NCBI GenBank assembly: GCA_045803455.1
Contig: JBJMPB010000125.1
Span: 1 to 24,885, forward strand
DNA from: Gemmatimonadales bacterium
Lineage (GTDB): Bacteria; Gemmatimonadota; Gemmatimonadetes; Gemmatimonadales; GWC2-71-9
Direction: 5' to 3'
Length of the DNA: 24,885 bases
The position numbers and the translations under genes were made by a program. Every line of letters begins with the position of its first letter. Positions within the stretch are counted from its first letter, which is position 1. Below, piece after piece: positions 3,241-12,411 of the stretch. The notes under the pieces are model-generated. The model saw nothing but the letters and a program-made list of their open reading frames with translations. It searched no databases and had not been told where the DNA came from.

Positions 3241-4266
3241 ATGCGCATTCTGGTTATCGGCGGGACCAATTTTATCGGGCCCCATGTCGTAACCCAGCTG
3301 CACCGGCAAGGCCACGAGGTCACGGTCTATCACCGTGGGGTGCACGAGCCCGACCTTCCCTCCGCCGTGCGCCACATCCACAGCTCCAGAGCAGCCATCC
3401 CGATTCTGCATTTCCCCTCTGTACTGAGCGAGCCTCGTCCCGACGTAGTGCTGCACATGTTCCCGGTGGGAGCGGAGGATACCCGCGCCGCCCTCGCAAG
3501 ATTCACGGGCATCGCGCAGCGAATGGTGGCCGTGAGCAGCGGAGACGTGTATCGAGCCTACGGCAGACTGCTGAACATCGAGCCGGGGCCTCCGGAGCCG
3601 ATGCCGCTGCAGGAAGACGCGCCGCTCCGCGAGACTCACTTTCCGTATCGCGAGGCTGCGGCCGGCCCGATGGATTGGACGTACCACTACGACAAGATTC
3701 TCGCGGAACGGGCGTTGTTGGAGAGCCGCCTGCCTGCCACCGTCCTGCGACTGCCTGCAGTCTATGGCCCGGGCGATCCGCATCATCGGCTTCGGCCGTA
3801 TGTCAGGAGGATGCAGGATCTGAGGCCGGTGATCCTGATCGATGCCTTACAGGCCCGATGGCGCTGGACCCACGGGTATGTAGAGGACATAGCCCGGGCG
3901 ATCACAGCGGCCGTGGTGGATCCGCGAGCAACGGAGAAGGTTTACAACCTGGGGGAAGCGTCAACACCCACCATGGCCGAGCGGATTGATCAGATCGGGC
4001 GATTGATGGACTGGCGGGGGCAGCTCGTATCGTTGAGCACAGAGCGGTTGCCCCGGCATCTACAGACTCCGTTCTACGCGCGGCAGGACTTGGTGATGGA
4101 CAGCCGGAGAATTCGAGTCGAGCTGGATTACACAGAGGTTGTGAGCGACGAAGAGGCCCTCAGGCGTACCATCGAATATGAGCATCGGAGCGAAGTCGTT
4201 CCGGGCGACCCCGGCGCTCAGGAGTATGCGGCGGAAGACCAGGCGGTTCAGCGAGGCGACACGTAG
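3241..4266 (+). CDS. NAD-dependent epimerase/dehydratase family protein (extended/atypical SDR)
   Basis: N-terminal Rossmann motif ILVIGGTNFIG, VSSGDVY, YxxxK (YHYDK), LRLPAVYGP, HGYVED, VYNLG; purine-rich AGGAAA upstream of the ATG. Confidence 0.85.
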   Translation: MRILVIGGTNFIGPHVVTQLHRQGHEVTVYHRGVHEPDLPSAVRHIHSSRAAIPILHFPSVLSEPRPDVVLHMFPVGAEDTRAALARFTGIAQRMVAVSSGDVYRAYGRLLNIEPGPPEPMPLQEDAPLRETHFPYREAAAGPMDWTYHYDKILAERALLESRLPATVLRLPAVYGPGDPHHRLRPYVRRMQDLRPVILIDALQARWRWTHGYVEDIARAITAAVVDPRATEKVYNLGEASTPTMAERIDQIGRLMDWRGQLVSLSTERLPRHLQTPFYARQDLVMDSRRIRVELDYTEVVSDEEALRRTIEYEHRSEVVPGDPGAQEYAAEDQAVQRGDT

Positions 4267-5726
4267 GTCTCGAAGAAGCCCGCGCCTGAATCGCTCACGG
4301 TTTCCCCCAGTACTCTCCCCCGCAGGTTGAAGTGCCCCCGCATCTGGAGGAAGGCTCGCCGAAAACCCTCGGCATTGCTGGGCGTGGCCAGCGCGTCTTC
4401 CACCTCCACGGCCAGGCGGAGGGAATCCTGGTCCCGCGTTGCCACCAACTCGAAGCGGCTCGGCGCAGTGAACCCGGGGCGACCCCGAGCCGGACGGGAT
4501 CCAGTGTAATGGATGGTGTTGAAGCGCAGCACCTGCTTGACCCCGAGCGAGTCCTCCAAAGTGAGAAAAAACGGAGAGCGCACCGCGGATGCTTCGCTCT
4601 GGTTCCGCTCCGGTCCATATACCCCGCCATATAGCACGGCCAGGCGTTTTCCCTGCCCCGCTCCCCACTCCCAGGTGACGTCACGCCAGACACCCCAGTT
4701 GTGATCATGATAGGCAGGAACCTGATGAAATTTCCGGCAGCGCCCAGCCACGCAGATAGAGCCGGAAGCGTGAGCAACCAGCCCGGGGACGACGTAGCCG
4801 GAGACGAACTCGTCACTCCGCAGCTCGACCGGCGGGAAATAGCGGTTGGACGCGGGCTGCAGGATGACATCGATTCGTACCGTCCCGGCGGATCCCGACG
4901 CGCCGCCGATCAGATGGTACACGCCGTCGCGCTGCGTCACCGAGCTTCCGCCTACCATCAAGTCTGCCCGGGTGGTGTCGAGCTGTACCCGCTGCGACGG
5001 CTCCCGGAGCAGAAAGCGCTGGTACTCCCCATCGGCTTGCCGGTGAGTCACCAGCAGCTGGCCACCCCAGCGGCCCGCTGCTGCCGGGTTGTGCTGGTCC
5101 GGAGGGATCTCGCCACCCACCAGGTACGTGATGTACCACCACTCGGTTTCCGAAGGGACAATGTTGAAGTAGTGCCACTCGCCCCAGGTGGAGTCGGCGA
5201 GGGGTGGAATGTGGAAGCGATCGAGCTCGTCGTAGAGCTGCTGGCTCGAGGGTGCGAGGTAAGCCGAATCAGCAGGCAGGTCTTTCCATGAACCGGCAAG
5301 GAGGTTCAATCCCGACCCAACGCTCGCGGCCCGGCTCGGAATTTCGCCTCCCGCTCTGACGGGGAGCACGCGATTACCTCTTTGGAGATAGAGCAGCTTG
5401 CCTTCAACCGTCGGGGAAACGGTCCGGACCAGGTCCTGGTGACGCACTCCGCCGAACACCTGGCGGACGAGGAAGCGGGCCCGGTCAACCCCAAAGAACA
5501 TGCTGCCGATTCCACCGGTTCTCATGGCTTCCACATCGATCCCCTGAGGCAGCACCGTGACCTCCCCTCCCCCGACCAGAGACACATCGCGTGATTGGTC
5601 CAGCATGGCCTGACCCACGGAGAGGAGGACAATCATAACGCCCACTCCGAGCGAGAAACCCAGGAGCAGGAAGAGGGAACGGAGCTTCCGGACCAGCAAA
5701 TGCCGGAAAGCCAGTATGGCTATCAC
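4248..5726 (-). CDS. Fusion of a MacB/LolCE-type permease N-terminal fragment (TM1 plus half of the periplasmic domain) to an AttH/CrtC-like (lipocalin-like tandem beta-barrel) domain
   Basis: Residues 1-45 (LAFRHLLVRKLRSLFLLLGFSLGVGVMIVLLSVG) are a typical type VII ABC permease amphipathic helix plus TM1. Similarity to the neighbouring permease continues to LLAGSW (residues 142-147). No further TM segment follows. The rest carries EWHYF (5166-5180), YHDHNWG (4692-4712) and WEWG, resembling the EWWY / DHxW / WDW motifs of AttH, CrtC and tocopherol cyclase. GTG start overlaps the ATPase stop (GTGA). Confidence 0.7.
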   Translation of the reverse strand: MIAILAFRHLLVRKLRSLFLLLGFSLGVGVMIVLLSVGQAMLDQSRDVSLVGGGEVTVLPQGIDVEAMRTGGIGSMFFGVDRARFLVRQVFGGVRHQDLVRTVSPTVEGKLLYLQRGNRVLPVRAGGEIPSRAASVGSGLNLLAGSWKDLPADSAYLAPSSQQLYDELDRFHIPPLADSTWGEWHYFNIVPSETEWWYITYLVGGEIPPDQHNPAAAGRWGGQLLVTHRQADGEYQRFLLREPSQRVQLDTTRADLMVGGSSVTQRDGVYHLIGGASGSAGTVRIDVILQPASNRYFPPVELRSDEFVSGYVVPGLVAHASGSICVAGRCRKFHQVPAYHDHNWGVWRDVTWEWGAGQGKRLAVLYGGVYGPERNQSEASAVRSPFFLTLEDSLGVKQVLRFNTIHYTGSRPARGRPGFTAPSRFELVATRDQDSLRLAVEVEDALATPSNAEGFRRAFLQMRGHFNLRGRVLGETVSDSGAGFFETYVSPR

Positions 5727-6448
5727 GCGGTAGAAGCGGGGAGCCCGGGAACGGCGGACGACTCCGCGCCCTCGGGGATGACGATGTGGCCGTCCAACAT
5801 GTGAATTATCCGATCGGCCTGCTCTGCCAGCCGGTCGTCGTGGGTGACCACCACCAGCGTCGTTCCATCCTGATTCAGCCGGCGGAATAGATCGAGGATC
5901 TCGTGGCCGGTGGCTGCGTCCAGCTCGCCGGTGGGCTCATCGGCCAGGAGAAGCGCCGGCCGGTTGGCCAGGGCGCGAGCTATGGCCACTCGCTGCATCT
6001 CTCCGCCTGAGAGCTGCGTGGCCCGGTGCCGAGCCCGGTGGTCCAGCCCTACATAGCCCAGCAACTCGAGGGCTCGAGCGCGCCGGTGATCCCGGGGCAC
6101 TCCGGCTTCCGCCATGGGAAGCTCCACGTTCTCTTGCGCTGTTAGCACCGGAAGCAGGTGAAATCGCTGGAAGATGAAGCCCAGCCGAGTAAGCCGAAGG
6201 CGGGTGAGCTCGCGATCGGAGAGTGATTCCAGAACCGTTCCCAGGATCTCCACCGTGCCCGAGGTCGGTGAATCGATTCCGCCGATGAGTTGCAGCAGCG
6301 TGGACTTGCCGCTGCCGGAGGGACCAACCACTGCTACGTACTCACCGGCGCCAATCTCCAGTGACACCCCTCGCAAGGCATGCACGGCTTCGCCGTACAT
6401 CGGGTAATCCTTCCGGAGGTCGCGCGCGACCAGCACCGGCCGGCTCAT
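5723..6448 (-). CDS. ABC transporter ATP-binding protein, LolD/MacB family
   Basis: Walker [11 protein letters not shown]-loop FIFQRFHLL, signature LSGGEMQR, Walker B/D-loop [12 protein letters not shown]-loop VTHD. ATG 6448 overlaps the upstream stop (ATGA); the longer ORF-track start at 6499 is less likely. Confidence 0.95.
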
Positions 6449-7638
6449 GCCGCCTCGGCCCGAAGCACCGCGGCGATGGCTGTCCGCGAGGCGAGCCACG
6501 CCGGATACAGTGCAGACAGAGAACCGGTCAGCAACAGGACCAGCGCCGCTCTGAAAAGGCTCTCCCGCCGGGGCACGAAGAAGGAGAACGCAGCGGGGAG
6601 GCCGGGAAAGCTGGTCAGGATACTGTCGAGGTAACGGGCGGTGACCAAACCGAGCACGATACCCAGAAGGGATCCGATGGCAGTGAGCGATACACCCTGC
6701 AGCAGCACCTCGCGTATCACCGTAGCACGGCTGATACCGATAGCTCGCAGCGTGGCGATCTCCCCCAGCCGCTCGTTGACCGTGATGGTAAGCAGGGTCG
6801 CGATCAGCAGCACCGTCACGATAAGACTCATGCTGCCGAGGATGTAGGAGAGCTGCCGAAAGTAGACCAGACGCTGCTTGAACTCTCGGACGAGGTCGGC
6901 CACGCTGTTCACTTCAAGCTGAGGGAACCGCTCACGCAGAGTTTTGGCCACGGCGGGAGCGGCAGTGTCCTCAGTGGCCCTGACCATCAGCAGGGAGGCT
7001 TGATCCCCCACTCTCTTCCCCGCCAGCGACTGCATCACCGGCAGCAGCGTGCCGACCGACGGCTGGTCCCGGTAGTCGTACACCCAGCGCACCAGACCCC
7101 TAACCCCCGCCGTCCGGCCCACCGCGGCGGTGACGACCTGCGGATCCAGGCGGCCCACCAGGGTGACACTATCTCCGACCTTTGCCTGAAGCACTCGCGC
7201 CGCCGGCAGGCTGAGCAGTACGCCGGTGCTGTCGCGGGGACTCAGGTCTCCTCCGGCGATAACGGTGTAGAGGGCCTGCGCCTCGGGCTGGATCCCGTAG
7301 CCAAACAGAGTGATGAGGCTGTCTCTGCGCCGGCCGTACAATGAGGCTCCCAAGACCGCTCCCGCCGCGGCAATGCCCGGTGTATGCCGGATCGAGGTAA
7401 CCAGCTGGGTGGCGCCGGACAGGGTGGCGTCGGTATCAAACGGCAGCGTTCCCTTGGGGGTCAGCCGGATCTGATATCCTCGGGCCAGAAGCAGCTCGGC
7501 AAATGACTTCTCGATTCCACCGCTCAGCATCACCATATCCAGCAGCATGGCTGCCGAGACCGCGATCCCTATGATCGAGAGGCCGGTCCGCAGTCGATGT
7601 CGCCCCAGGCTTTTGAGACTCCAGCCCAGCCCTGTCAC
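6445..7638 (-). CDS. ABC transporter permease, MacB/LolCE/FtsX type (complete, 4 TM)
   Basis: TM1 (LRTGLSIIGIAVSAAMLL), large periplasmic domain with VGDSVTL, TM2-4 with the ER..EIATLRAIG coupling motif, C-terminal YPAWLAS. GTG 7638 overlaps the upstream stop (GTGA). Confidence 0.92.
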   Translation of the reverse strand: MTGLGWSLKSLGRHRLRTGLSIIGIAVSAAMLLDMVMLSGGIEKSFAELLLARGYQIRLTPKGTLPFDTDATLSGATQLVTSIRHTPGIAAAGAVLGASLYGRRRDSLITLFGYGIQPEAQALYTVIAGGDLSPRDSTGVLLSLPAARVLQAKVGDSVTLVGRLDPQVVTAAVGRTAGVRGLVRWVYDYRDQPSVGTLLPVMQSLAGKRVGDQASLLMVRATEDTAAPAVAKTLRERFPQLEVNSVADLVREFKQRLVYFRQLSYILGSMSLIVTVLLIATLLTITVNERLGEIATLRAIGISRATVIREVLLQGVSLTAIGSLLGIVLGLVTARYLDSILTSFPGLPAAFSFFVPRRESLFRAALVLLLTGSLSALYPAWLASRTAIAAVLRAEAA

Positions 7639-8471
7639 CCGCGCCCCCACAGCACAAGGGGACGAGTCTGGACCAGTCTCCAGGCAGCGAGTGCACCAGC
7701 CACCGCTCCGAGCCCGAGCGACAGCACGACACTGAACCAGACGATGTCAGGCGTGATAATGGAGAAGGTCAGGACCGTATCGAAGAACCGGCGATAGTAG
7801 GCGTTGGTGGCCGCACCAGCCAGGTACGCCAATCCGGTTCCGAGCAGGCAGCCCAGAGCCGCCAGCAGAATGGCTTCCAGCAGAAGGGCGCCGAATATGG
7901 TGCGGCGCCGCACGCCCACAAATCGCATGACGGCGGCATCCAGCCGGCGTTCCTCCACCTTGAGGAGCATGATACAGAGGACGAACACCGTGCTGGCCAC
8001 GATGGTGATCACCGCAATCGCCCGGTGAAAGCGGCTGACCACTCGGAAGGTCTGCGAGGATTCCGCGGCAATGCTGGCCGACGGGAAGGCCCGGAACCCG
8101 TAGGCGCTCCGGTTTAGTACCTCGCTGGCTGAATCTGCAGAAATACCGGGCCTGAGACCGATACTTAGACGATCCACCCGGTCTGGGGACCCCAGGAGGG
8201 CCGCCAGGTCGGGAAGGTGCATCCGGAGATGGCGCTCGCGTTTGGCGATCTCAGCCGGATCCGCTCTGGGCTCGTAAATGGCCGAGATCTTCATCAGGCT
8301 ACCGGGCCTGTCCGGCCGGGGACCCAGTCGGACGCTGTCGCCCACCGAGAGCCCTAGCTCCTCGGCCAATTGACGCTCGACCGCGACCCCGCCCACTTGT
8401 GCCGCGGCCGGCCCGGTCACGACCGGCAGCAGGAACAGCAAGGCGCCCAAGTGTCGGGCCAGAGTAGTCAT
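7635..8471 (-). CDS. N-terminally truncated MacB/FtsX-type permease with a signal peptide (C-terminal half of periplasmic domain plus TM2-TM4)
   Basis: Signal-peptide-like MTTLARHLGALLFLLPVVTGPAAA-Q, then directly GVAVERQLAEELGLSVGDSVRL (mid-periplasmic MacB motif), then three TM segments with VEERRLDAAVMRFVG. 278 aa against 397 aa for the intact neighbour. Confidence 0.85.
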   Translation of the reverse strand: MTTLARHLGALLFLLPVVTGPAAAQVGGVAVERQLAEELGLSVGDSVRLGPRPDRPGSLMKISAIYEPRADPAEIAKRERHLRMHLPDLAALLGSPDRVDRLSIGLRPGISADSASEVLNRSAYGFRAFPSASIAAESSQTFRVVSRFHRAIAVITIVASTVFVLCIMLLKVEERRLDAAVMRFVGVRRRTIFGALLLEAILLAALGCLLGTGLAYLAGAATNAYYRRFFDTVLTFSIITPDIVWFSVVLSLGLGAVAGALAAWRLVQTRPLVLWGRG

Positions 8472-8526
8472 AAAGGAAACTAGTGCCGCACGGTTCCTTT
8501 CTGGGAATGCCTGGAGCAGAACATCT

Positions 8527-9468
8527 ATGACGGGTCAGAGCCAACCGAGGGTTGCCGTGGTGGGCATGAGCGAGTCCGGCAGGGGCTGGGCGTCGCTGGT
8601 GGCGGGAGCCGGCTGGCCACTGACAATCTACGACCCGGACGCTGCCCTGCTCCATGACGGCGAAGACGATATAGCGACCCGGAAACGGCACTCTCAGGGT
8701 GTCGGCCTGCCGGCCATGCGGGAGCACCGGGACGACTCGGCCCCGGGGCAGCTCCGGCTGGGACGTAGTCTCCTCGATACCGTGAGTAACGCCGACTGGA
8801 TCATCGATACCAGTGGCGGCGACTTGCTCCACCGGCAGCGGCTCCTGGAACAGATCGAGCGCGCGGCACGCATGGCAGCTATCGTGACCTGTGGGGCTCC
8901 CGGTCTTTCGCCGACGGATCTCTGTGCCCGCCTTCGCCGGCCCACTCGGCTTCTCGTGGCCCATGCCCTCGATCCGGTGGAACACGTGCTTGCGGTCGAG
9001 GTGGTGCCCGGCACGCTGACTGACCCAGCGGTGCTGGACGAGCTCAGAAACTGGCTCCGCCAACTGGGACGGGTACCGATCGTCCTGCGGAAGGAAGTGC
9101 CGGGTAACGCCACTGGACGCATTGCAGTCGCGGTATGGAGGGAGTGCATTCGGCTGGTGCTGGACGGCGTGCTGGAGGTGCGGGACGTGGATGTTCTGGT
9201 CTCCTCCGGACTGGCGGCCCGCTGGGCCGCGGCCGGACCGTTCCAGACGGCCTATCTCGAGGCCGGCGAACGGCAGACGGCGCAGCTCAGCGCCTTGTTG
9301 CGGGCTCTGGAAACTCGCTGGGAAGGCGACACCAGCTTCTATTTGCCTCCGGCCGAGCATCAGCACCTGATTCGATTGATCGAGCGGGCTTACGATGGTG
9401 AGGGCGACGTTCTCAAAGGCGCGCGGAATGAACGGCTGGCCGAGTTGAGGAGAATCGTAGGCTACTGA
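8527..9468 (+). CDS. 3-hydroxyacyl-CoA dehydrogenase / L-gulonate 3-dehydrogenase (lambda-crystallin)-like protein with degenerate motifs
   Basis: VAVVGMSESGRGWA...IYDPD, LLVAHALDPVEHVLAVEVVPG, LGRVPIVLRKEVPG and GLAARWAAAGPF follow the family pattern in order; GGAG lies 10 nt upstream of the ATG. Confidence 0.8.
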   Translation: MTGQSQPRVAVVGMSESGRGWASLVAGAGWPLTIYDPDAALLHDGEDDIATRKRHSQGVGLPAMREHRDDSAPGQLRLGRSLLDTVSNADWIIDTSGGDLLHRQRLLEQIERAARMAAIVTCGAPGLSPTDLCARLRRPTRLLVAHALDPVEHVLAVEVVPGTLTDPAVLDELRNWLRQLGRVPIVLRKEVPGNATGRIAVAVWRECIRLVLDGVLEVRDVDVLVSSGLAARWAAAGPFQTAYLEAGERQTAQLSALLRALETRWEGDTSFYLPPAEHQHLIRLIERAYDGEGDVLKGARNERLAELRRIVGY

Positions 9469-10268
9469 CTCCGAAATGGATGTTCGAAGCTCAGATACAG
9501 GAACAGCCCCTCTGCCCCATCCCCGTCTCGCCCCAATCCAATGGTATACGCAGCGCCTGGCACTACCTGAAGATGACCAAAATCGAGGGCAGTACGGATG
9601 CCGGGATTGAGAACCCAGGTTGATGCCTCAGTCATCCTCCCCTCCGTCACGACCTCACCCGCCTCGTACCAGACTGTCTCCAGCAGAAGATTGAAGCGGG
9701 GACGAGCCAGCCAGATAACGCTGGCGCCCAGGTTGAGTCCATACGTCGTCGCCTGATCGCCCGCGGCATTTCGGGCTGAGGGCGTCAGGGTGGCTCCCGC
9801 ATTCCAGTGAGTCACCACAGCTTCGCTCAGCACCAGTGTCAATGGGACATTGACCTGAACCCCTACTCCTCCCCTTCCTCGGCCCGCAGCTTCACTACCA
9901 GTAGCTAACAAGAGACTCAGCCGGGGAGCGGCGACGACGCGGGCCTGGGGATTGCCCGCCAGCTGATACCGATAGTTGACGGCCACGTCGCCCAGGCCGG
10001 TCCCCCGCACTTCGGTATTCAGGAAGGGAATGGTGTAACTGAGCTGGTGCTTGATGCCGCCGAGCGGCCATTCCTGGGTGAAGGAGAAGGTCCAGTCTCC
10101 GCCGGTAACGGCGTAGTTACTGATGTGCTGAACGACCCCGGCTTCCTGGTTGTAGGCCTCTTCCACCAGAAAGGAGTTGTCCTGGATTTGCGCGGCGAGT
10201 GGTGAGCCGTAAGCAGTGAGCAGTACTATCGAGACACAGAGGAGCACTCGACGGCTCAGGTAGCTCAT
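9462..10268 (-). CDS. Putative outer-membrane beta-barrel channel (transporter-like hypothetical protein)
   Basis: Signal peptide ending PLAA-Q, mature N-terminus QIQDNSFLVEEAYNQEAGVVQH, alternating amphipathic strands, C-terminal beta-signal-like LFLYLSFEHPF; GGAGG ribosome-binding site 4 nt before the ATG. Confidence 0.7.
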   Translation of the reverse strand: MSYLSRRVLLCVSIVLLTAYGSPLAAQIQDNSFLVEEAYNQEAGVVQHISNYAVTGGDWTFSFTQEWPLGGIKHQLSYTIPFLNTEVRGTGLGDVAVNYRYQLAGNPQARVVAAPRLSLLLATGSEAAGRGRGGVGVQVNVPLTLVLSEAVVTHWNAGATLTPSARNAAGDQATTYGLNLGASVIWLARPRFNLLLETVWYEAGEVVTEGRMTEASTWVLNPGIRTALDFGHLQVVPGAAYTIGLGRDGDGAEGLFLYLSFEHPFRSQ

Positions 10269-10296
10269 GAGTCCTCCGCAACCACTCAGTGCTGGA

Positions 10297-11655
10297 CTAG
10301 CCCACCCACTGGCGAAAGGTCCCGACCAGCAGCCAGCTATTCAGTCCCATGATGACCCCGGCAACCAGCCAGGCCAGTGCTGCCAATCCACGGCTGTTTA
10401 CGAACTGACCCATTTTCGAACGCTGACTGGTGAAGTACACCAGCGGTACGACGGCGAAGGAGAGCTGCAGGCTGAGAATGACCTGACTCAGAATCAGGAG
10501 CCCGCCGGCGCCACGCTCACCATAGGCCGCGGTGACAATGACTGCAGGGATGATCGCAATGAGCCGGGTGATCAGACGACGGAGCCAAGCCGGCAGCCGG
10601 ATGTTGAGAAAGCCCTCCATGACGATTTGCCCGGCCAGAGTCCCGGTGATCGTCGAATTCTGACCCGAGGCCAGCAGGGCGACGGCGAAGAGGGTGCTGG
10701 CCATTGTGGTGCCCAGCAGCGGCGCCAGCAGCCGGTAGGCATCGCCTATGTCCGCCACCTCCTGATGTCCGGTGTTGTGGAACGTCGCCGCGGCCAGAAT
10801 CAGAATGGCCGCGTTGATGAAGAAAGCGAACAGCAGGGCGACGGTCGAATCCAAAGTGGCGAAACGAATAGCCTCCCGCTTCGACGCGACGTCGGGCAAT
10901 ACCTTGCGGGTCTGCACGATGGACGAGTGCAGGTACAGGTTGTGGGGCATGACCGTGGCGCCCAGAATGCCGATGGCGATGTACAGCATCATCGGATTGG
11001 TCACGATTTGTGAGGTGGGTATCAGGCCTCGGGCGACAAACGAGAGGTCCGGCCGGGCCATGATCAGCTCAGCACCAAAGCAGACACCGATCGTGGCGAC
11101 CAACGTGATCACCAGCGCCTCGAGGTAGCGAAACCCCTTGTGCTGCAGCAACAGAATGAGCAACACGTCGAACGCGGTCAGACACACACCCCATATCAGC
11201 GGAATTCCGAACAACAGGTTCAGGGCGATAGCCGAGCCGATCACCTCCGCCAGATCACAGGCGGCGATGGCGATTTCGCAGAGGACCCACAGCACAAAGC
11301 TGACCGGCCGCGAGTAGTGGTCCCGGCAGGCTTGCGCGAGATCCCGGCCGGTCGCAATGCCGAGCTTCAAGGCGAGAGCCTGAAGGAGAATCGCCATCAG
11401 GTTCGAGAGCAGGATGACGCTCAGCAGGGTATATCCGAACCGCGCTCCACCGGCCAGATCGGTTGCCCAGTTTCCTGGATCCATGTAGCCCACGGCCACC
11501 ATATAGCCCGGCCCGGCAAAGGCGAGCGCCTTGCGCCAGAAGGAAACGCCCTTGGGCACATGGACCGTGTGATAGGACTCGGGCAGGCTCGGTAGTGTGC
11601 GTGGATAGCGCCACGCGCCGAGTTCGCGGACGGGTTCGGACGAGGCAGCGCTCAT
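10297..11655 (-). CDS. mntH: Nramp-family divalent metal (Mn2+) transporter MntH
   Basis: Signature motifs [10 protein letters not shown] (TM1) and MPHNLYLHS (TM6), plus [20 protein letters not shown]; about 11 TM segments. ATG 11655 overlaps the mntR stop (ATGA). Confidence 0.97.
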
Positions 11656-12338
11656 ACGGCCCCCGTGCAGGCGCACTGAAGAACGTGACTGAGCTCGCGA
11701 CCGATGACGTGCCGCTGTCCGCCGACCTCGATGGTGACCAGGTCGTCGAACGGCTGCCGGTCTAGCACCGTAATCCGGACGCCCGGCTTAAGGCCCAATG
11801 AAGCGATGTAGCGCAGCCGCTCGGGCTGATTTTCATGAACTCGATGGATCTCGACGGTGTCACCAACCGGAATATCGGAGAGCGGTGTGCAGGAAAGCTC
11901 GTGGACGAAACCGTCTGCCGAAGGGATGGGGTCGCCGTGAGGATCCACGTCAGGATTCCCCAGGGCGCTGGCCATCCGTTCGACCAGGGTGTCGGAGACC
12001 GCGTGCTCCAAACGCTCGGCCTCATCGTGGACCGTGTCCCAGGAGTAGCCCAGGAACTCCACCAGATAGGCTTCGATCAGGCGGTGCCGGCGAACCATCC
12101 GCAGAGCTGCCCGGCGACCCTCATCGGTCAGCTGGACCCCGCGATAGGGAACGTGCTCCAGCAACCCGTGCTCGGACAGCCGCTTGACCATCCCGGTAAC
12201 CGATGGCGGCGATAGCGCGAGCAGGTGAGCGATCTCGCTGGTAGAAGCGGGACGACCCTCCGGGGACAACTGGTATATGGCCTTCAGATAGTCTTCGACT
12301 GACCGGGTCAAACTGTCGCTAAGGGTAGCGGCACTCAC
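11652..12338 (-). CDS. mntR: DtxR/MntR-family manganese-dependent repressor with C-terminal FeoA (SH3-like) domain
   Basis: VEDYLKAIY, w[42 protein letters not shown], FeoA-like LGLKPG. Asp and Glu at the positions equivalent to DtxR M10 and C102 mark the Mn-sensing members of the family. Confidence 0.92.
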
Positions 12339-12350
12339 ACTGGGCTCCGT

Positions 12351-12364
12351 TTAGGCTTGCCTAA
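12351..12364. promoter_or_regulatory. MntR/SirR-type operator palindrome TTAGGC-TT-GCCTAA
   Basis: Perfect 6-bp inverted arms, 12 nt upstream of the mntR start; matches the TTAGG-N4-CCTAA pattern of DtxR-family (SirR/MntR-type) boxes. Confidence 0.85.
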
Positions 12365-12392
12365 TACTGATGTGTGAGCCGACTAATGTCAA
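12364..12392 (-). promoter_or_regulatory. Sigma70-type promoter for mntR-mntH-porin
   Basis: On the minus strand: perfect TTGACA (12392-12387), 17-bp spacer, CAGTAT (12369-12364, keeps the A2 and T6 of TATAAT). The operator begins at the last base of the -10. Confidence 0.7.
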
Positions 12393-12411
12393 GTTTAACC
12401 TAGTTGAAGTG

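Follow-up and report, generated by a model that had tools for sequence, protein, structure and literature searches.

The 24,885-nt stretch analysed here (the window) is contig JBJMPB010000125.1 of the Gemmatimonadales bacterium assembly GCA_045803455.1. Between positions 8471 and 4248 its minus strand is filled by four open reading frames (ORFs) encoding a MacB/LolCE-type ATP-binding cassette (ABC) system, in which one permease is intact and a second appears to be divided between two chains. ORF calling of the window gave the order C-terminal piece (C-half), intact permease, ATPase and N-terminal piece (N-half), so that the permease pieces are encoded in reverse (Table 1). Each junction is a 4-nt overlap of stop and start codons (GTGA at 7638–7635, ATGA at 6448–6445 and GTGA at 5726–5723), and the four genes are translationally coupled; the coordinates and all three overlaps agree with an earlier reading of this DNA made without database searches (the sequence-only reading). 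By hydropathy, the N-half contributes one transmembrane (TM) segment, the C-half three and the intact permease four, giving eight. A scan of positions 3900–8800 for promoters and terminators returned nothing above chance level.

Table 1. Genes of the split-permease operon and their predicted features, in window coordinates.
Feature	Position	Strand	Length	Description
C-half gene	8471–7635	minus	278 aa	
C-half residues 1–25	8397–8471	minus		Predicted Sec signal peptide: Arg in n-region, hydrophobic core of ~11 residues, A-A-A then Q
C-half residues 26–130	8082–8396	minus		Predicted back of Sabre and second beta-alpha-beta of Porter; hhalign to intact permease 138–255
C-half residues 131–278 and stop	7635–8081	minus		Predicted TM2–TM4 (FtsX domain)
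Intact MacB/LolCE-type permease gene	7638–6445	minus	397 aa	From GTG at 7638, which overlaps the upstream stop; longest ORF starts at 7650; TM1, full periplasmic domain, TM2–4
MacB/LolD-type ABC ATPase gene	6448–5723	minus	241 aa	From ATG at 6448; longest ORF from 6499; ABC_tran E 2.6e-34
N-half gene	5726–4248	minus	492 aa	
N-half residues 1–45	5592–5726	minus		Predicted cytoplasmic amphipathic N-helix and TM1, MacB-type
N-half residues 46–147	5286–5591	minus		Predicted first beta-alpha-beta of Porter and about the first 45 residues of Sabre
N-half residues 148–492 and stop	4248–5285	minus	345 aa	Conserved linker and AttH/CrtC-like double beta-barrel, predicted periplasmic

The two undivided genes encode recognizable components of a type VII ABC system. 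The intact permease has the plan of a type VII permease, with Pfam MacB_PCD (1–206/207) and FtsX domains and four TM segments by hydropathy, and the PDB chains that match it are LolC, LolF, LolE and MacB. The ATPase matches the profiles of the MacB nucleotide-binding domain (NBD; E 1e-72), LolD (E 1e-70) and FtsE, over a range of 1e-72 to 1e-64; its translation shows Walker A, signature, Walker B and H-loop motifs, and on this basis it is taken as the cognate MacB/LolD/FtsE-type NBD protein with intact motifs. The operon does not score as a LolCDE equivalog: matches to the lolCE, LolC and LolE profiles were far under the curated cutoffs and that to LolD was also below its own; the lolCE profile TIGR02212 gave 80 bits for the intact permease and 31 bits for the C-half against a cutoff of 362, and the LolD profile TIGR02211 gave 237 for the ATPase against a cutoff of 308, with the match to the MacB NBD also under its equivalog cutoff.

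Profile–profile alignment (hhalign) of family alignments built from 21 genomes revealed that the two pieces cover complementary portions of the intact permease. Residues 1–131 of the N-half align to intact residues 6–123 (E 2.7e-5) and residues 23–271 of the C-half to intact residues 138–392 (E 7.8e-24), while the G-x-x-P and hydrophobic-A-G motifs common to the N-half and the intact permease stretch the N-half match to about intact residue 135. Profile coverage and motif matches together indicate that the fragments abut within a few residues, in agreement with the sequence-only reading, which had claimed almost no gap or overlap; the ungapped 22-residue match that it described (10/22 identical) is in register with the profile alignment. 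Its proposal to map the breakpoint on Pfam domains gave a clear answer for the C-half, where FtsX alone is found (E 4.3e-14), and a weak one for the N-half, where positions 1–110 of the 207 in the MacB_PCD profile match residues 17–147 (E 0.0057). MacB_PCD is matched by 14 of 28 N-half homologues, with a best E of 3e-6, and positions 145–367 of the lolCE profile (NCBIfam) match C-half residues 29–248.

Most of the N-half profile signal comes from its N-terminal helix and TM1, which align to intact residues 6–45 with E 3.2e-5. N-half residues 5–44 also align to residues 6–45 of a pneumococcal MacB-like permease (5xu1_M), hydropathy places the single TM segment at residues 14–43, and in the hhalign register the periplasmic part (53–132) corresponds to intact residues 58–124. 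A profile of the 492-aa family searched against PDB sequences returned nothing beyond the N-helix/TM1 motif (E 0.016). In an AlphaFold2 (AF2) prediction from a 28-sequence alignment, residues 40–150 had predicted local distance difference test (pLDDT) values of 27–49, against 85–98 for the AttH-like part described below; this N-part is among the best-conserved regions of the 492-aa protein (52%), yet its pLDDT stays under 50 when folded alone. In some database entries (P0298, 704 aa, and P0313), a single ORF unites an ABC ATPase domain with the N-half protein; these could be genuine NBD fusions of the MacB kind or the result of gene calling that ran two genes together across the GTGA overlap.

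The C-half model (AF2, pLDDT 82), with helices at 131–170, 189–230 and 241–268, superposes from residue 22–26 onwards on LolE 143–413, LolC 138–397 and MacB of A. actinomycetemcomitans (390/396–642). LolE and LolC are its best structural matches, and further matches include YtrF, HrtB, BceB and YbbP. In A. actinomycetemcomitans MacB, Sabre comprises residues 347–465 and Porter residues 306–346 and 466–503 (PMC5985334). By superposition, the cut falls inside Sabre, about 45 residues in (near residue 393 of that MacB) and about 35 residues ahead of the LolC Hook position (Met175), and each chain would consequently give half of Porter and part of Sabre, neither subdomain being complete in one chain. 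This architecture combines a C-part that was modelled and superposed with an N-part that was assigned by profiles only and modelled without confidence. As judged from sequence and models, the split unit carries all elements of a type VII permease, namely the N-helix, TM1, periplasmic domain and TM2–4, distributed over two chains.

The N-terminus of the C-half is predicted to behave like a cleavable Sec signal peptide and not like a MacB-type TM1, given its short core, its A-x-A-Q motif, its low identity and its lack of the N-helix/TM1 motif. In 109 called homologues the presequence shows an Arg near the start, a core mostly of 10–13 residues and a conserved A-x-A-Q. Identity across 21 genomes is 24.5% in this segment, compared with 41% for the periplasmic and 56% for the membrane part. 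Hydropathy detects three TM segments and a weak N-terminal hydrophobic stretch (1.76 over residues 8–26), and in the AF2 model the presequence forms only a helix at residues 5–13 (pLDDT 55). The amphipathic-helix/TM1 motif absent from this terminus sits on the 492-aa chain instead, and no ORF extension is possible upstream of the ATG at 8471. The signal peptide already proposed from the letters alone is supported by a poorly conserved presequence (24%) with A-x-A-Q, and an uncleaved TM1 equivalent is disfavoured. In the most distant family (L013, L021, L024 and L032), C-half homologues carry two extra conserved cysteines, one just past the presequence and the other about 45 residues on, which suggest a lineage-specific disulfide or, possibly, lipidation.

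Beyond the permease part, the N-half runs into a domain of a different kind. The sequence-only reading had correctly observed that this protein diverges from the intact permease after LLAGSW, and had missed that the divergent part is a 345-aa AttH-like domain. Its AF2 model is all-beta with pLDDT mostly of 85–98, and a Foldseek search against the PDB gave matches with E from 1e-12 to 1e-8, including AttH NE1406 (2ICH; TM-score 0.63–0.64, probability 1.00), kievitone hydratase, the decalin-forming Diels-Alderases CghA, Fsa2 and Phm7, and 25-phosphosteroid lyase. Matches in the AlphaFold database (AFDB) and the ESM Atlas fall in CrtC, AttH, DUF2804, tocopherol cyclase and Svf1 clusters. From the agreement of these three structure libraries, the modelled domain is assigned to the AttH-like fold superfamily, which consists of two flattened lipocalin-like barrels packed orthogonally. 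The only family-level hidden Markov model (HMM) signal is a sub-threshold match to Tocopherol_cycl (E 0.027, residues 318–354), CrtC and Lipocalin_9 giving no match. Alignment of the domain revealed the invariant motifs E-W-x-Y-x-N, S-G-Y, Y-H-D-H-N-W-G and G-F-F-E, which suggest a defined pocket, and an invariant cysteine pair (C325 and C330), which fits a periplasmic location. Characterised AttH-like enzymes, such as CrtC, kievitone hydratase and archaeal Hgs, hydrate isoprene double bonds (bioRxiv 10.1101/2025.10.20.683597). Among the AFDB and Atlas matches, AttH-like domains are also fused to OafA-type acyltransferases and to CDP-alcohol phosphatidyltransferase/GtrA modules. A tblastn search of the AttH part against 72,556 plasmids, aimed at the attH of Agrobacterium plasmids, gave no match. 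The idea that the domain is the missing carotenoid 1,2-hydratase of Gemmatimonas was dropped, as cruF has already been proposed for that step (PMC8342508).

Co-occurrence was examined in 201 Gemmatimonadota genomes; the tallies include genome G157, which contributed no examined locus and whose omission changes nothing. A clear homologue of the 492-aa protein is present in 70 genomes (69 at E < 1e-80 and one contig-end fragment; a raw tally of 80 also takes in weak matches to intact permeases) and one of the 278-aa protein in 69. Both pieces occur together in 68 of the 70, and the two discordant genomes (G146 and G170) have the gene at a contig end; these cases aside, neither piece was found without the other, an outcome in favour of the sequence-only reading, which had named separate occurrence as a point against itself. 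The order C-half, intact permease, ATPase and N-half on one strand was found in all 20 loci compared from five families and in all 65 further loci with enough flank, 17 others being cut by contig ends. The reversed split order that was to be checked by synteny is thus kept in 85 of 85 informative loci, at identities down to 31–40% and including a relative at 31%, and the intact permease is present in every one of them. Each fragment has more than 2800 homologues of near-constant length, belonging to Gemmatimonadales wherever named. A scan of species representatives found 284 genomes with a relative, and the best 80 of these 284 are all Gemmatimonadota except for one 3.3-kb contig binned as Acidimicrobiales and one genome labelled ‘bacterium’.

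Regional conservation across the 21 genomes was compared between the two permeases. Mean identity in the split and intact permease, respectively, is 59 and 55% for the N-helix and TM1, 52 and 45% for the periplasmic N-part, 41 and 33% for the periplasmic C-part, and 56 and 54% for TM2–4. By this measure constraint on the split unit equals or exceeds that on the intact permease and both fragments are under purifying selection, which makes it hard to see in them a vestigial anchor, pseudogenes or an artefact of assembly. The cassette itself tolerates insertions: an extracytoplasmic function (ECF) sigma factor and RskA-type anti-sigma pair lies between the intact permease and ATPase genes in locus L057 (3708–5206), a 1.5-kb gap occupies the same place in L064, and a protein of the endonuclease/exonuclease/phosphatase family, which includes sphingomyelinases, is encoded between the ATPase and N-half genes in L015 (5460–7031).

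We consider it probable that the operon encodes a LolCDE-like, asymmetric type VII ABC extractor that passes a hydrophobic, probably isoprenoid, membrane molecule to a tethered AttH domain. The complex would comprise two ATPases, the intact permease with four TM segments and a two-chain permease contributing another four, and we infer both the reassembly of the two chains and a 2:1:1:1 stoichiometry. The 492-aa chain would be inserted with its N-terminus in the cytoplasm, supplying the N-helix, TM1, the first half of Porter and the first third of Sabre before running on into the periplasmic AttH-like double barrel. The 278-aa chain would be exported by means of its cleavable signal peptide, placing its new N-terminus in the periplasm at the point where the 492-aa chain leaves Sabre, and would complete Sabre and contribute the second half of Porter as well as TM2–4. 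Because both subdomains would be built from both chains, the proposal requires the pieces to fold together as a single periplasmic domain. The ATPase, in two copies, would then drive a mechanotransmission cycle in which, by analogy with LolCDE–LolA and YbbAP–TesA, ATP binding squeezes a hydrophobic molecule, most likely an isoprenoid-type lipid, from the outer leaflet of the inner membrane. The tethered AttH barrel would receive this molecule and either keep it bound or modify it by chemistry of the hydration or cyclisation type. The barrel would emerge from Sabre, the subdomain that also holds the Hook by which LolC recruits LolA, and it has been suggested that Sabre is the subdomain that adapts within the family (PMC5985334). 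Putative in this scheme are the cleavage of the signal peptide, the joint folding of the two chains, their pairing with the intact permease, the class of substrate and the direction in which it is passed on, and isoprenoid extraction in particular is argued from the linkage of ABC and AttH genes, the YbbAP–TesA precedent and the isoprenoid chemistry of AttH-like enzymes.

Several points weigh against this scheme. At the sequence level, the N-half match to MacB_PCD falls under the Pfam gathering score, the N-half periplasmic part taken alone aligns to the intact permease only with P 0.023, though in the correct register, and a BLASTP comparison of the 492-aa protein with the intact permease gives no significant collinear match, so that profiles are needed. 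The poor pLDDT of the N-part is a further point, and could stem from the shallow alignment. Signal-peptide cleavage was judged by eye and is presumptive, as are the interaction of the two chains and the view that the intact permease joins their complex instead of forming a homodimer of its own. Enzyme activity of the AttH-like domain is suggested by fold analogy only, given that the PF09410 and PF07143 HMMs give no match to it. Even so, every prediction of the sequence-only reading that was tested came out in its favour, including three on points that it had itself named as telling against it, and its interpretation is supported.

Four alternatives were weighed. The permease may reassemble as proposed while serving two separate transporters that share the ATPase, a two-chain homodimer with two AttH domains and an intact homodimer. 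MacB, FtsX and HrtB do act as homodimers; yet one ATPase gene beside two different permease genes, in an overlapping operon that is strictly conserved, matches the pattern of LolCDE, and every informative locus has the intact permease, which makes two separate transporters improbable. We regard as no less improbable a system without reconstitution, in which the 492-aa protein is an anchored AttH enzyme with a relic permease anchor and the 278-aa protein a three-helix, TM1-less partner of the intact permease. The weak homology of the N-half periplasmic part speaks for this reading, and the fusion of AttH-like domains to other membrane modules means that anchoring itself is common. Simple anchors are usually little conserved, however, whereas the N-helix/TM1 and the 100-residue N-part are the best-conserved regions here; the N-part keeps a collinear MacB_PCD register, the C-half starts exactly where the N-part ends, and a Porter/Sabre fold without its first elements is unlikely to be stable.

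Far less plausible is an uncleaved signal anchor at the C-half N-terminus that serves as its own TM1, which would yield a short four-helix permease and leave the 492-aa protein as an accessory subunit with a ninth helix. A hydrophobic stretch at C-half residues 8–29 could be read this way, but the core is short in most of the 109 homologues (~10–13 residues) and a conserved A-x-A-Q comes after it. Moreover, conservation of the segment is 24%, the amphipathic helix motif of permease N-termini is absent from it, and the structural match to LolE, LolC and MacB begins only at residues 22–26. An assembly error, a frameshift or decaying pseudogenes can be practically discounted: the window comes from a fragmented metagenome-assembled genome (MAG; 678 contigs, 84% complete), but the sequence-only reading had already argued from the reversed order that no frameshift or sequencing break is involved, the same four ORFs recur with the same sizes and order in the 85 independent loci, including closed or near-closed genomes, and the abundant homologues of both fragments bear the marks of purifying selection.

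The favoured extractor can be placed among described systems, each of which matches it in part. LolCDE–LolA likewise has one ATPase gene and two different MacB-type permease units with a periplasmic domain of Porter and Sabre, and passes outer-leaflet cargo to a periplasmic protein with a hydrophobic cavity that docks on one permease only, to which the AttH-like domain is likened here. In the present operon, by contrast, one permease is in two chains and the acceptor-like domain is fused covalently instead of acting as a soluble shuttle. AttH-family proteins are genetically linked to LolD-type ABC systems in NE1404–NE1406 of Nitrosomonas (PMC2954199), and attE–attH of Agrobacterium and Rv0986–Rv0988 of M. 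tuberculosis couple a MacB/LolD-type ABC system to an AttH-fold protein (PMC3982062). These Att-type systems share with the operon a MacB-type ATPase, two permease units (the split unit counted as one) and an AttH-fold protein; in them, however, AttH is separate and exported and the permeases are intact (AttF and AttG) or tandem-fused (Rv0987), whereas in this operon AttH shares a chain with TM1 and the N-part of a split permease, and the genes stand in permuted order. YbbAP–TesA of E. coli is a type VII ABC system proposed to lift hydrophobic inner-membrane molecules to an attached periplasmic enzyme (PMC12646458), but TesA is a separate SGNH hydrolase of another fold, bound non-covalently, and YbbP has both of its FtsX units in one chain. 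AttH/CrtC-like enzymes, such as the carotenoid 1,2-hydratase CrtC, kievitone hydratase, the archaeal hydroxy-GDGT synthase Hgs, fungal decalin synthases, 25-phosphosteroid lyase and tocopherol cyclase, resemble the domain in their double barrel and strongly conserved polar cluster, and none of them is part of an ABC permease.

The components and the pairing of ABC and AttH genes are thus already known. As far as checked, four features are new: a cut that falls within the periplasmic domain, a signal peptide leading the downstream piece, AttH joined on at the break, and genes in permuted order; none of the papers searched described a split MacB/FtsX-type permease. We speculate that the reversed order is the product of a tandem duplication followed by trimming at both ends, that is, a circular permutation at the operon level, from a presumed ancestral operon that encoded, besides an intact permease and an ATPase, a second permease in one chain whose Sabre contained the inserted AttH. 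Such an unsplit chain (TM1, N-part, AttH, C-part and TM2–4) was found in none of the 150 best representatives of 50%-identity clusters. Two candidates were rejected: P0298 is the ATPase and N-half fusion or merged gene call noted above, and P0254 is without a Pfam match at a locus whose gene calls look unreliable. The 780-aa AFDB match A0A6V8F157 is a further candidate.

The genomic neighbourhood links the operon to manganese genes. Upstream of it, and encoded on the same strand, are an Nramp/MntH gene and a DtxR/MntR-type repressor gene (window 9462–12400; loci L014–L114). Of 66 loci whose upstream flank spans at least 3 kb, at least 41 have MntH within 6 kb upstream and at least 40 have the repressor there, both counts being lower bounds as many flanks are short. 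Two arrangements occur, repressor–mntH–operon in the family of the window and mntH–repressor–operon in Gemmatimonadaceae, the latter with the repressor 60–700 bp upstream of the operon, which indicates that the linkage outlived a rearrangement; it may mean co-regulation by manganese. Between the mntH-side genes and the operon, a divergent gene at 8527–9468 on the plus strand encodes a 3-hydroxyacyl-CoA dehydrogenase-like protein and is not among the recurring flanking genes of the 20 compared loci. On the other side, the 3′ end of the N-half gene overlaps by 19 nt (4248–4266) that of a convergent gene at 3241–4266 encoding an NAD-dependent epimerase/dehydratase of the short-chain dehydrogenase/reductase (SDR) group. 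A more elaborate picture would make the complex an ATP-driven ‘extract and modify’ machine that feeds a membrane isoprenoid of the carotenoid, hopanoid, quinone or polyprenol type to a tethered AttH-type hydratase or cyclase, originated by operon-level circular permutation and, from its recurrent place downstream of mntR and mntH, belongs to a manganese or oxidative-stress response; taken as a whole, we consider this picture unlikely, if somewhat less so than the alternatives above.

Type VII ABC systems (MacB, LolCDE, FtsEX and YbbAP) serve as models for mechanotransmission and, to our knowledge, all described type VII permeases are single chains or tandem fusions. If reassembly is true, this naturally cut periplasmic domain shows that two separate chains can form Porter and Sabre, with the downstream piece re-entering through the Sec pathway, and it would identify a Sabre loop at which large inserted domains are tolerated, of use in engineering and in the dissection of force transmission. 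Att-type ABC systems are poorly understood; the fusion gives them a physical tie to their AttH partner and provides a testable hypothesis for where AttH docks and what these systems do. The cassette is abundant in soil Gemmatimonadota, being present in about one-third of the sampled genomes, and as MAGs labelled Gemmatimonas also carry the operon, genetics in cultured relatives may be possible.

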